A stretch of DNA of 64,000 nt, taken from a bacterium. GTDB taxonomy: Bacteria > Krumholzibacteriota > Krumholzibacteriia > LZORAL124-64-63. This document shows, in pieces, positions 3,346-3,482 of the stretch. The stretch lies in assembly GCA_016703265.1 (NCBI GenBank), contig JADJCK010000009.1, positions 226,570 to 290,569 on the forward strand. The letters are read 5' to 3'. Position 1 is the stretch's first letter; the number at the start of each line of letters is the position of its first letter. A program made the position numbers and the translations under genes. The notes beneath the pieces are model-generated. The model searched no databases and was not told the DNA's origin. It saw only the letters and a program-made list of their open reading frames with translations.

Positions 3346-3368
3346 GCGTCTCATTGTCGACCTGTTCT

Positions 3369-3420
3369 CGTCCAATTGCAAACTTAATTGCGTCCAATCG
3401 TCATTTTATGCTCGTCCAAT
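3369..3420. promoter_or_regulatory. three direct CGTCCAAT (ATTGGACG on the coding strand) repeats with exact 22-bp spacing in the 5' leader of ATPase paralog 1
   Basis: CGTCCAAT at 3369, 3391 and 3413; a fourth degenerate ATCCAAT at 3464. AT-richer leader. A similar array is found upstream of paralog 2. Confidence 0.4.
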
Positions 3421-3482
3421 CGCCATCTACTGTCCGCAACATATTGTTTTACAATATTTTACCATCCAATGTCGAGTATGCC

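Follow-up and report, generated by a model that had tools for sequence, protein, structure and literature searches.

Head-to-tail iterons of 17–22 bp, set at a spacing of about 22 bp (two helical turns), lie beside the genes for the winged-helix Rep proteins of plasmids pPS10 (RepA), F (RepE) and R6K (π), with the related operator in these plasmids being an inverted repeat that covers the rep promoter. Binding sites of about 22 bp are also carried by the ends of Tn7 and Mu. DnaA (at dnaA and oriC) and Orc1/Cdc6 (at ORB sites) are AAA+ proteins with a C-terminal helix-turn-helix (HTH) or winged helix that bind asymmetric box arrays beside their own genes, with nucleotide-dependent filament formation and autoregulation. 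The STAND ATPase MalT multimerises in an ATP-driven manner and binds direct repeats near promoters cooperatively; besides a separate LuxR-type HTH it carries sensor repeats, and it is an activator of other operons. Among defence systems, the WYL-wHTH proteins of the BrxR/CapW type are separate repressors that act on palindromic, promoter-overlapping operators, so that expression of a toxic defence gene stays low. We know of no upstream array reported for the Avs-type STAND NTPase-nucleases or for the archaeal ATPase (PF01637) plus DUF234 families.

Here we describe arrays of 17-nt boxes in the leaders of two intact DUF4143 (COG1373) ATPase genes that lie in a 64,000-nt stretch of bacterial DNA (called the window below). 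They resemble plasmid iterons in being phased head-to-tail repeats beside the gene for a winged-helix protein, but this protein has no Rep domain and joins a STAND-like NTPase to a PD-(D/E)XK nuclease, and the arrays are chromosomal and multicopy, do not have conserved origin features, and have boxes that form promoter hexamers. The parallel with Rep autoregulation is that direct-repeat arrays occur in some subfamilies and a promoter-spanning inverted repeat in others. A STAND-type NTPase and direct-repeat boxes near a promoter are also features of MalT, and binding as an oligomer is predicted here as well; on the other hand, the gene's own promoter region is the sole evident target, and the protein, at ~415 aa, includes a nuclease and has no sensor domain. 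Like DnaA and Orc1/Cdc6, it is an NTPase with an HTH or winged helix that has an asymmetric box array by its own gene, but there is no replication role, the NTPase belongs to another clade, the spacing is a strict 22–23 bp, and a nuclease domain is present. The domain order (NTPase, winged helix, PD-(D/E)XK-type nuclease) is that of the Avs-type and PF01637+DUF234 proteins, with the difference that there is no sensor repeat domain. Finally, an operator that overlaps the promoter of a toxic defence gene recalls the BrxR/CapW systems, the gene here being a defence candidate (PDC-S01; PMC12988326), but a single polypeptide would be both effector and presumed regulator, with a phased direct-repeat array as the operator.

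Paralog 1 (421 aa) is 100% identical to NCBI protein P0001, and its true start is the second ATG, at 3345 and not 3354, which fits the alignment of homologues. Both intact paralogs score above the curated Pfam cut-offs, paralog 1 with 82.9 bits for AAA_14 (2.5e-23; cut-off 27) and 174.1 bits for DUF4143 (2.4e-51; cut-off 28.1) and paralog 2 with 94.0 and 158.0 bits, respectively, and both match PADLOC model PDLC04790 (PDC-S01) at 9.5e-170 and 4.1e-167. The Walker A (GPRQCGKT) and Walker B (IDEVQ) motifs and the nuclease residues E312, D344, E358 and K360 of paralog 1 are intact; within the PD-(D/E)XK core (E ... D ... ExK) of DUF4143, E312, D344 and K360 show no variation and conservation of E358 is 90% or higher. 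A census of PD-(D/E)XK proteins includes the DUF4143 family (PMC3424549). An AF2 model of paralog 1 (mean pLDDT 79) places a winged helix (residues ~214–283), which could be a STAND-type WHD, between the STAND-like NTPase and the PD-(D/E)XK nuclease, and comparison of structures gave Arch-ATPase 2qen as the best match, followed by NB-ARC and CED-4. Sequence searches returned P-loop matches only and no solved homologue, and domain searches found no Rep-type, DnaA or transposase domain. The third paralog in the window is a frameshifted fragment without a leader or the first ~37 codons, and it is cut off by insertion-sequence remnants (fragments at 19862–20017).

PDC systems are untested defence candidates (bioRxiv 10.1101/2024.01.29.577857; PMC12988326). 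The DUF4143/COG1373 ATPases (PDC-S01) are reported to be the fourth commonest 'defence' gene in prokaryotes, with ~39,500 instances (PMC12988326), and the commonest single locus in rumen genomes (PMC13356809). The family is found on 442 plasmids, and 2.9 million viral contigs contain only 9 of its loci. That the gene is phage-borne was considered and rejected, as there are only 13 matching phage records, all of them uncultured gut 'Bacteriophage sp.'.

Table 1. Genes, boxes and promoter-like hexamers of the DUF4143 loci in the window (w.m., score with the box weight matrix)
Feature	Coordinates	Strand	Sequence	Remarks
Paralog 1 CDS	2080..3345	-		421 aa; AAA_14 NTPase + winged helix + DUF4143 (PD-(D/E)XK) nuclease
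Box 1 (proximal, degenerate)	3347..3363	-	AGGTCGACAATGAGACG	22-bp register with box 2; abuts start codon
-10-like hexamer in box 1	3353-3358	-	GACAAT	ends 8 nt before A of ATG 3345
Box 2	3369..3385	-	AAGTTTGCAATTGGACG	exact ATTGGACG at 3369-3376; top w.m. match in window, 23.5 bits
-35-like hexamer in box 2	3376-3381	-	TTGCAA	17-nt spacer to GACAAT
Box 3	3391..3407	-	AAAATGACGATTGGACG	exact octamer at 3391-3398; w.m. 15.7-16.7 bits
Box 4	3413..3429	-	TAGATGGCGATTGGACG	exact octamer at 3413-3420; w.m. 11.8-12.9 bits
Distal degenerate octamer	3463..3470	-	ATTGGATG	50 bp from box 4, out of phase; membership of array uncertain
Third DUF4143 paralog, fragment	19426..19865	-		tblastn, 43% and 31% identity to paralog 1
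Paralog 2 CDS	27090..28340	-		416 aa; 52% identical to paralog 1; same domain architecture
Paralog 2 box	28364..28380	-	AACCCTTCATTTGGACG	w.m. 18.9-19.2 bits; downstream of predicted promoter
Paralog 2 box	28387..28403	-	AAACCTACAATCGGCCA	w.m. 16.8 bits; holds -10 TACAAT (28393-28398)
Paralog 2 box	28409..28425	-	AAGGTTGCAATTGGCGC	holds -35 TTGCAA (28416-28421); found by w.m. and promoter scan
Paralog 2 box	28432..28448	-	CAAATTGCGATCAGCCA	w.m. 14.1-14.5 bits
Paralog 2 box	28478..28494	-	ATGCTGGCAATCGGACG	46 bp (2 x 23) from 28432 box
Paralog 2 box	28500..28516	-	GAGTCGCCAATTGGACG	exact ATTGGACG at 28500-28507; 22-bp pair 28477/28499
Paralog 2 distal degenerate box	28528..28544	-	GTGCTGCAGATTGGCCG	28 bp from 28500 box, out of phase

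A preliminary description of this DNA had reported the octamer ATTGGACG three times before paralog 1 at steps of 22 bp, and these copies are borne out (Table 1; they read CGTCCAAT on the forward strand, the genes being on the minus strand). The window has just one more exact copy, carried by the paralog 2 leader; all four, where 1.87 were expected over the whole window, are thus confined to the leaders of the intact AAA_14+DUF4143 pair. When one mismatch is allowed, 8 of the 36 matches in the window lie in the two leaders, all of them on the gene strand, and these include near copies at 3463–3470, 28364, 28478 and 28528. The first of these near copies is the degenerate fourth copy previously claimed for paralog 1; it exists, but it is out of phase with the other three. 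An additional degenerate copy that is in phase had been missed: box 1, whose sequence matches the proximal 'GTTACAATCAGCCG ATG' box of homologues. The octamers are thus real, but the unit of repetition is a 17-nt box (consensus AAssTTkCAATyrGmCG) of which the octamer is the 3' half. The element CCAATTGCAA(A/C), described as common to the two leaders, is also real (3372–3382 and 28412–28422) and is the box core TTGCAATTGG read on the gene strand. An independent repeat finder recovers the 22-bp pairs reported before paralog 2 (28389/28411 and 28477/28499) as well as a 44-nt (2 x 22) register in leader 1, and TTGGACG is present before both start codons as had been stated, ending 23 nt upstream of each (3369 versus ATG 3345, and 28364 versus ATG 28340). 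We agree with the preliminary description that the paralogs have no common flanking sequence, as the two leaders share nothing except the boxes; the gap before the 28478 box is occupied by a 12-nt tandem duplication (28448–28471).

A weight matrix for the 17-nt box was built from other genomes only, with W1, W2 and L001 excluded. Its five best matches in the window are all within the two leaders, and 8 of its 16 matches of at least 8 bits fall inside these 363 nt (of 64,000); at 12 bits or more there are 8 matches in the window versus a mean of 1.2 in shuffled sequence. Leader 1 is AT-rich (42% GC, compared to 67% for the window) and includes an AT-rich palindrome without a T-run (3438–3460) between box 4 and the distal octamer; no intrinsic terminator for the upstream rluA-like gene was called in 3200–3700.

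Similar boxes are present upstream of relatives of these genes in many other genomes. We confirmed 589 relatives and analyzed the boxes of the best 80 of these 589 loci, which represent ~18 phyla and are 53–92% identical. All 77 of these 80 that could be analyzed have one to nine head-to-tail boxes directly upstream of the gene, 256 boxes in total, and the interval between boxes (n = 179) is 23 bp in 130 cases and 22 bp in 44. In 562 kb of sequence there are 275 box matches of at least 12 bits, of which 246 are within 300 nt upstream of the gene; every one of these 246 is on the gene strand and on the one side of the gene, and the remaining clusters lie before a second paralog or are remnants of arrays. 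Nucleotide homology between genomes has its upstream limit between -58 and -82 and its downstream limit no more than ~40 nt from the stop codon, which is to say that it comprises the array and the ORF alone, and the boxes are the sole non-coding sequence conserved together with the gene. Comparison of neighbourhoods found no consistently linked second gene, and there is no conservation of the neighbouring genes. A few distant loci (L084, L221 and L229) adjoin a small, separate HTH gene. Within the subfamily, a single residue-to-base association was seen, in which the recognition-helix variant LTRQTIH accompanies TAGCG(A/T)T boxes; the association may reflect a single clade, and this covariation between LTRQTIH and TAGCGAT is suggestive only, because CGAT boxes occur also with the common SRPTIR helix.

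These arrays sit on chromosomes and number two to three per genome (the window has two, plus the third gene fragment); the two intact paralogs are 25 kb apart in the window and in tandem in L001. In three of the 77 loci (L057, L068 and L073) there are array remnants directly after the stop codon, in direct orientation, and that of L057 is a copy of its upstream array, spacers included. The arrays of L030, L063, L074 and L228 are perfect tandem repeats, again including the spacers, a sign of recent slippage. Octamers in 22-bp phase are not confined to the leaders of this family: among 120 metagenomic arrays with three copies of ATTGGMCG at 22–23 bp, 49 are followed directly by a family gene and 61 have no family gene. 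The latter are mostly homogeneous satellites with a period of 22 bp or shorter, which hold the octamer by accident, plus about eight solo arrays, and so exclusivity of the pattern to this family is rejected. A phmmer search of these gene-less metagenome matches with 23 diverse family members gave one distant match only (L208), which is far from the array.

More distant, plasmid-borne members of the family (22–58% identity) show the same periodicity with different sequences. The best autocorrelation lag is 22–23 bp in 13 of 24 of their upstream regions, where about one would be expected by chance, and autocorrelation identity reaches 0.69–0.74 in L089, L228 and L229, compared to less than 0.6 in all control windows. 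The box sequences of different subfamilies are unrelated, so that sites vary with the protein subfamily while the 22–23-bp period is kept, and no other gene is linked. These distant boxes are not promoter-like; the arrays lie 60–150 nt ahead of a promoter of conventional type with a Shine-Dalgarno sequence, a position that would fit activation equally with repression. In some other subfamilies an inverted repeat spans the promoter.

In the subfamily of the two paralogs, the boxes themselves form the promoter: the two proximal boxes carry a -35 (TTGCAA) and a -10 (TACAAT or, as in paralog 1, GACAAT). In 60 of the 77 loci (10% at control positions), a hexamer that agrees with the -10 at 4 or more of its 6 bases ends 6–12 nt before the ATG, within the proximal box, its last base being mostly 7–9 nt from the ATG; the -35 is TTGCAA in 27 loci, and spacers are 16–18 nt in 71 of 77. 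The proximal box ends 0–2 nt before the ATG in most loci, and a Shine-Dalgarno-like sequence is found in only 5 of 77. Because the ATG follows the -10 by 6–12 nt without a Shine-Dalgarno sequence, we infer a leaderless mRNA that would start at or beside the ATG, and the mRNA of paralog 1 is probably of this kind. Paralog 2 is an exception, with its promoter two boxes farther upstream (the promoter scan called TTGCAA-17-TACAAT at 28421..28393) and a GGAG Shine-Dalgarno sequence; neither it nor its L001 orthologue has the leaderless arrangement. The promoter-forming boxes and the probable leaderless mRNA of paralog 1 had been overlooked in the preliminary description.

These observations give strong comparative support to the idea, put forward in that description, of a dedicated DNA-binding factor tied to the gene family, perhaps the ATPase itself, because the phased boxes travel with the gene over ~18 phyla, are the only non-coding sequence conserved with it, and have subfamily-specific sequences at a constant period. 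Judging from the loci compared, the gene product is the sole trans factor common to all these hosts, and the array is most likely the protein's own docking and self-regulation site; we consider it probable that head-to-tail oligomers of the product bind these boxes and that the gene is thereby autoregulated. Every member of this DUF4143 ATPase-nuclease subfamily would then come with a self-contained control module of three to nine 17-nt boxes, all pointing along the gene at a spacing of about two helical turns. One protomer would occupy each box, most likely by means of the winged helix, and the STAND/AAA-type NTPase domains would contact one another head-to-tail along the array, giving cooperative occupancy. 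Occupation of boxes 1 and 2 would occlude RNA polymerase, and a nuclease that is potentially toxic would in this way be kept under tight negative autoregulation. With its promoter, its operator and a leaderless start all inside a cassette of ~1.3 kb, such a unit could work in any host. The identity of the binder, the sign of the regulation and oligomerisation on the DNA are, like the leaderless start, what we infer from the arrangement and conservation of the boxes.

The sign of regulation could be the opposite one, with the boxes as an upstream activating array. An ATP-bound product oligomer assembled there would recruit or remodel RNA polymerase, as MalT does on its direct-repeat boxes, and a signal such as infection, by driving oligomerisation, would raise expression. 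By analogy with MalT the STAND-like NTPase would suit such a role, the distal boxes reach 60–200 bp upstream of the -35, which is beyond what occlusion needs, and the arrays of distant subfamilies lie wholly upstream of a conventional promoter. In addition, a distant family member from Thermus, TT_P0211, is inducible 6.6-fold (PMC4406477). Against this, in the present subfamily the two proximal boxes fall on the -35 and -10 hexamers and abut the ATG, the classical position for a repressor, the hexamers look adequate without an activator, and other subfamilies have their inverted repeat over the promoter. We think positive control unlikely.

It is also quite unlikely, in our view, that the array serves primarily as a DNA platform for parking or licensing the ATPase-nuclease, or as a site of recombination or homing by which array and gene move together as a cassette, with self-regulation secondary. 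The unit conserved between unrelated genomes is exactly array plus ORF, the family extends across ~18 phyla at 55–62% identity and onto the 442 plasmids, the nuclease active site is intact as judged by its residues, solo arrays without the gene exist, and the paralogs, in tandem in L001 but 25 kb apart in the window, and the remnants after the stop codon in direct orientation would suit a mobile unit. However, terminal inverted repeats, target duplications and a recombinase are all absent, nothing points to empty target sites, cleavage of its own promoter would be self-destructive, and the downstream arrays, which are few, can be accounted for along with the solo arrays by tandem duplication followed by deletion. 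A bolder proposal, which we regard with similar doubt, is that the array is the assembly track of a minimal STAND-like ATPase-nuclease and its ~23-bp period, common to subfamilies whose box sequences are unrelated, the protomer spacing of a head-to-tail filament on the DNA; parking there would repress its gene as well as leaving the nuclease latent, to be released or re-targeted upon infection or by foreign DNA, and the array might perhaps be a recombination substrate that spreads the 1.3-kb cassette, with its own promoter and leaderless start, between phyla.

A reader different from the gene product might recognise the boxes, either a host factor or sigma-70 itself, the array in the latter case being a slippage-made stack of promoter modules for expression in many hosts. 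TTGCAA and TACAAT are indeed promoter-like, each adjacent pair is spaced by 16–18 nt, and the perfect tandem arrays attest to recent slippage. But the best-conserved box positions are G9, C11 and G12, and these are outside the hexamers, which indicates a reader other than sigma-70; moreover, no host factor is common to hosts among the CPR bacteria, Thermotogae and Proteobacteria, and the boxes of distant subfamilies keep the 23-bp period without being promoter-like. Such readers are decidedly improbable.

Even less probable, and very much so, is that the array consists of replication-origin iterons or is a transposon end served by the adjacent ATPase, and the iteron-like array tied to mobility that had been offered as a second possibility finds no support. 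Direct repeats of ~22 bp beside a winged-helix protein gene do resemble iterons, the sites at the Tn7 and Mu ends are of this size, and leader 1 is AT-rich with an AT palindrome. Yet the protein has none of the domains of a Rep initiator, DnaA or transposase, and the arrays are chromosomal with more than one per genome. No conserved AT-rich flank or unwinding element is found by the arrays of the other loci, and the family is rare among viral contigs. An origin of the iteron type was rejected on the absence of a Rep initiator, a conserved unwinding element and single copy, despite the phased direct repeats of ~17–22 bp, and ends of the Tn7/Mu type on the uniform orientation of the upstream boxes on one side of the gene, the scarcity and direct orientation of downstream boxes, and the absence of a transposase. 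That the repeats act in RNA, as a structured or protein-binding 5' leader, is extremely improbable and was rejected, since no Rfam covariance model matches in 3200–3700 at E-values up to 1, direct repeats have no complementary arms, and in most loci the position of the proximal box and its -10-like hexamer leaves the array upstream of the predicted start and untranscribed, although the 28364–28380 box of paralog 2 is probably in a short 5' leader.

In the searchable literature that mentions DUF4143 we found no earlier description of upstream repeats at these genes, and a conserved, subfamily-specific DNA element with a fixed period of 22–23 bp is the first concrete molecular handle on the DUF4143/COG1373 family, predicting both the DNA sequence recognised by the protein and the geometry of its head-to-tail oligomer. 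It also provides a rule for annotation, namely that the true start is the ATG abutting the proximal box. By this rule the start of paralog 1 is corrected and so are, for both paralogs, the overlong ORFs that begin at upstream TTG or GTG codons. Solo arrays give a means of recognising decayed loci, and a cassette complete with promoter, operator and leaderless start, as predicted, would account for the ability of the gene to function after transfer to very distant hosts.

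Our analysis of the leaders of the two intact AAA_14+DUF4143 (COG1373) ATPase-nuclease genes, paralogs 1 and 2, shows that the repeats found there are a local instance of a conserved cis-element far more general than the preliminary description could see. That description reported three octamers at exact 22-bp intervals upstream of paralog 1; an exact search of the 64-kb window for CGTCCAAT recovers all three, with one further copy in total (table). Since both octamer sites are upstream regions of minus-strand genes, the word on the gene strand is ATTGGACG. With at most one mismatch the octamer has 36 matches in the window, below the mean of 47 in shuffled sequence, and eight of these fall in the two leaders (8/8 on the gene strand); it is therefore clustered, not common. 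An independent repeat finder returned, in leader 1, a 44-nt (2 x 22) register and, in leader 2, the 22-bp pairs already reported, and the leaders, as had been claimed, have no common sequence outside the boxes. The fourth, degenerate copy described upstream of paralog 1 is present, but is out of phase and 50 bp from the third; similarly, the repeats are real, but their unit is longer than 8 nt. The GC content of leader 1 is 42%, against 67% for the window. Between the stop codon of the neighboring RluA-like gene and box 4 (boxes are numbered from the ATG outward) there is an AT-only palindrome (AACATATTGT / ACAATATTTT, 3-nt loop), which has no T-run, is not called as a terminator and is not present in the orthologue in the closest related genome (L001). 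One box is missing from the paralog 2 array; its place is taken by a 12-nt tandem duplication (GCTCTGCCGGTC GCCCTGCCGGTC), across which the 46-bp (2 x 23) phase is kept.

Locations of the features discussed (window positions unless a compared locus or metagenome contig, L-number, is named) and boxes of distant subfamilies
Feature	Location	Strand	Remarks
Paralog 1	2080-3345	minus	AAA_14 + DUF4143
Paralog 2	27090-28340	minus	AAA_14 + DUF4143
Third DUF4143 copy	19426-19865		frameshifted; 5' end and leader lost to insertion-sequence remnants
Octamer CGTCCAAT, exact copies	3369, 3391, 3413; 28500	+
Distal octamer copy	3463
Degenerate box, in phase	3347-3363	gene strand	adjoins start codon of paralog 1
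Paralog 1 promoter hexamers	3376-3381; 3353-3358		TTGCAA; GACAAT
Paralog 2 promoter	28421..28393		TTGCAA-17-TACAAT
AT-only palindrome	3438-3460
12-nt tandem duplication	28448-28471
RluA-like pseudouridine synthase gene	3483-4217	minus
Insertion sequence	28541-29800
Insertion-sequence ORF	28634-29617	+	rve/rve_3 integrase-core transposase
Insertion-sequence fragments (two)	19862-20017
600-aa ORF	29561-31363	minus	glycine-rich, highly repetitive (GGxGG runs), N-terminal hydrophobic segment
Tandem orthologues	L001 3020-6100
Array remnants past stop	L057 ~5370-5420; L068 ~5270-5320; L073 ~5300-5330		direct orientation
Inverted repeat	L086 ~750-791		CCTTGCAA-N20-TTGCAAGG
Inverted repeat	L221 ~565-603		CCTTGCAA-N20-TTGCAAGG
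Inverted repeat	L223 ~553-591		degenerate
Distant box	Rhizobium		AATTAACGTTTCGCC
Distant box	Prosthecochloris		GGCGAAAYGGTAGCGTA
Distant box	Bacteroides ovatus		AGCCAAACTGCCGAATAATATTA
Distant box	Collinsella		CGTCAATCGTCCCAATAA
Distant box	Skermanella		CTACTAGNAGATTTTTC
AATCYGATTGGACGGCGRACGS satellite	L097, L098, L101, L114, L140, L143, L148, L162, L170, L173, L174, L179, L188, L192, L206, L208
Solo arrays	L107, L159, L160, L164, L182, L194		divergent spacers; no DUF4143 gene downstream

Scanning a single genome for each species confirmed 589 relatives, and the best 80 of these 589 loci (53-92% identity) represent about 18 phyla, among them Proteobacteria, Chloroflexota, Acidobacteriota, Nitrospirota, Planctomycetota, Verrucomicrobiota, Spirochaetota, Thermotogae, Clostridia and one CPR bacterium. 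Aligned at the start codon, nearly all display the same arrangement, and an iterative weight matrix yields a 17-nt box, AA-s-s-TT-k-CAAT-y-r-G-m-C-G, whose strongest positions are T0, T1, C3, G9, C11 and G12. There are 256 boxes, present in 77/77 analysable loci (usually 3-5 per locus, maximum 9), at intervals of 23 bp in 130 of 179 cases and 22 bp in 44. ATTGGACG is the AT-T-G-G-A-CG variant of the box's 3' half, and ATCAGCCG, ATTGGCCG and ATTTGGCCG are as frequent there. The 562 kb of locus DNA contain 275 matches of at least 12 bits, 246 of them within 300 nt upstream of the gene and on its strand and none on the opposite strand in that interval; most of the others are further arrays, either before the second tandem paralog (L001) or as short remnants. 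When trained without the window and L001, the matrix places its five best window matches in the two leaders.

The check proposed in the preliminary description, whether the spaced octamer is restricted to leaders of this family, shows a very large enrichment but not exclusivity. Three ATTGGMCG words spaced 22-23 bp occur in at least 120 metagenome contigs; among the matches listed, a family gene starts just downstream in 49 of 120, the array runs off the contig in 6, a family fragment is elsewhere in 4, and in 61 a family gene is absent, sensitive search included. Most of these 61 are homogeneous tandem satellites whose unit, 22 bp or shorter, includes the word by chance, and about eight, among the matches listed, are genuine-looking solo arrays; where spacers differ, 24 of the 36 arrays listed have the gene next. 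One recurrent near-perfect 22-bp satellite, AATCYGATTGGACGGCGRACGS (4-7 or more copies; at least two contigs labelled human gut), contains the octamer, and no family gene adjoins it. The solo array of L107 is followed by an ECF-sigma-like ORF and that of L182 by a small RHH antitoxin-like ORF.

The paralogs are 52% identical and both score well above the Pfam thresholds for AAA_14 and DUF4143. Paralog 1 starts at ATG 3345, giving a 421-aa protein identical to an NCBI entry (P0001); this identity and the homologue alignment favor 3345, and ATG 3354 and TTG 3381 were rejected. The window proteins match the PADLOC 'phage defence candidate' PDC-S01 (E about 1e-170). The AlphaFold model (mean pLDDT 79, pTM 0.83) predicts a P-loop NTPase, a three-helix winged-helix module (~214-283, with a putative recognition helix at 245-257) and an alpha/beta nuclease domain. 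The C-terminus matches Can2, McrC, NucS and type II restriction enzymes, both Walker motifs (A and B) and the E-D-ExK nuclease residues are conserved, and no solved structure of a relative is detectable by sequence. With STAND-like structural neighbors and an invariant WH motif (267-268), the winged-helix module could be a STAND-type WHD instead of a DNA reader. An insertion sequence lies directly distal to the paralog 2 array, with the glycine-rich ORF directly past it; two fragments ~91% identical to this element truncate the 5' end of the third paralog, and the same element (92% identical) is upstream of the gene pair in L001.

In 60 of the 77 loci a -10-like hexamer (at least 4/6 TATAAT) stops 6-12 nt short of the ATG, most often 7-9 nt, compared with 10% of control positions. 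It is the T-k-CAAT portion of the proximal box with k = A (commonest forms TACAAT, TACGAT, TACACT and TATAAT), and 16-18 nt upstream of it 71/77 loci have a -35 hexamer; it is TTGCAA, supplied by the next box, in 27 loci. The simplest reading is that boxes 2 and 1 form a sigma-70-type promoter. Shine-Dalgarno-like sequences occur in 5/77 loci, and the transcript would begin at or next to the ATG, as a leaderless mRNA. The hexamers of paralog 1 have a 17-nt spacer, with the ATG 8 nt on. Paralog 2 and its L001 orthologue depart from this layout; since a promoter scan calls the paralog 2 promoter two boxes farther upstream and GGAG stands 8 nt before the ATG, its mRNA probably has a ~46-nt leader with one box.

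Among 24 plasmid-borne distant members (22-58% identity), 13 have their best local autocorrelation over the 250 nt upstream at a lag of 22 or 23 bp (about 1 by chance); identities are 0.57-0.74 in six distant loci, and 240 control windows are all at or below 0.54. Box sequences are unrelated from one subfamily to another. Other subfamilies have, instead of an array, a promoter-spanning inverted repeat adjoining the ATG, for example CCTTGCAA-N20-TTGCAAGG in Acidithiobacillus and Ruegeria (degenerate CCTTGCAA ... ATGCATGG in Sphingobium), which reuses the CCTTGCAA half of the window-subfamily box. In the subfamily of L086, L221 and L223, whose proteins are ~30% identical to those of the window, this repeat extends over both a TTGCAA -35 and a -10 of ATAAT-like sequence and finishes at the ATG. 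Within the window subfamily, TAGCG(A/T)T boxes replace TTkCAAT in a clade whose recognition helix is LTRQTIH, a suggestive association that may be a single evolutionary event.

The most economical explanation, and in our judgement a reasonably probable one, is that the gene product binds its own boxes and autoregulates negatively. One protomer would read each box, head-to-tail contacts between NTPase domains would fix the 22-23 bp spacing, and occupied boxes 1 and 2 would exclude RNA polymerase, with negative autoregulation of a probably toxic nuclease as the outcome. The product is favored as reader because the boxes are conserved at positions sigma-70 does not read, are asymmetric and all in one direction, keep a fixed two-turn period as their sequence shifts with the protein subfamily, and are linked to this ORF only, in hosts without a common specific regulator; polymerase exclusion is favored because in the window subfamily the -10 and -35 hexamers are supplied by boxes 1 and 2. 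Activation in the manner of MalT, instead of repression, would also suit, and in distant subfamilies the array does lie upstream of an ordinary promoter.

In all-against-all blastn of the loci, inter-genome nucleotide similarity starts 58-82 nt before the ATG (2.5-3.5 boxes) and stops no more than about 40 nt from the stop codon (for example L002/L007 85%, L051/L071 87%, L028/L048 80%, L025/L033 80%); the flanks are similar in a few clearly syntenic pairs and dissimilar in all others. Judged by these alignments, the unit of conservation is array plus ORF. The family is found on 442 plasmid records and is rare in phage records and viral contigs. The window paralogs are 25 kb apart, whereas their L001 orthologues (92% protein identity) are in tandem and have an array each. 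Homology of paralog 1 to L001 is limited to -58 through the stop codon, which suggests that the array-plus-gene cassette has moved. Array remnants lie 9-53 nt past the stop codon in three loci (two boxes in L057 and L068, one in L073), that of L057 being a copy of the upstream array including spacers; they could be what deletion left of a tandem duplication, or could mark where a cassette inserted. If the array served as a track on which the nuclease assembles or parks, or as a site at which recombination spreads the cassette, this would fit a conserved unit that is exactly array plus ORF, direct-orientation remnants right after the stop, solo arrays without the gene and paralogs arranged differently in the two genomes; we nevertheless consider such a role for the array quite unlikely. 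The origin/iteron, transposon-end and RNA-leader readings each fail their own defining tests, and the iteron-like array entertained in the preliminary description finds no support.

DUF4143 has been described as a PD-(D/E)XK family of unknown function (PMC3424549), and PDC-S01 as ranking fourth in frequency among prokaryotic defence candidates, validation pending (PMC12988326), from a set of explicitly untested candidates (bioRxiv 10.1101/2024.01.29.577857). The sole expression datum for the family that we found in the literature is for a distant AAA_14/DUF4143 member, Thermus thermophilus HB27 TT_P0211 (pTT27), which is 6.6-fold up with plasmid DNA and Argonaute (PMC4406477 Table 1); the searchable literature, itself thin, makes no mention of repeats upstream of DUF4143 genes. 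Relative to known autoregulatory operators and iteron-like arrays, the window array is a variant in kind. What appears undescribed is a head-to-tail period that stays at 22-23 bp from one subfamily to the next, boxes doubling as promoter hexamers, the inferred leaderless start and the portable 1.3-kb cassette. The cis-element belongs to one of the most abundant uncharacterised prokaryotic gene families, and, taken together, these four particulars open the family's DNA specificity to direct test.
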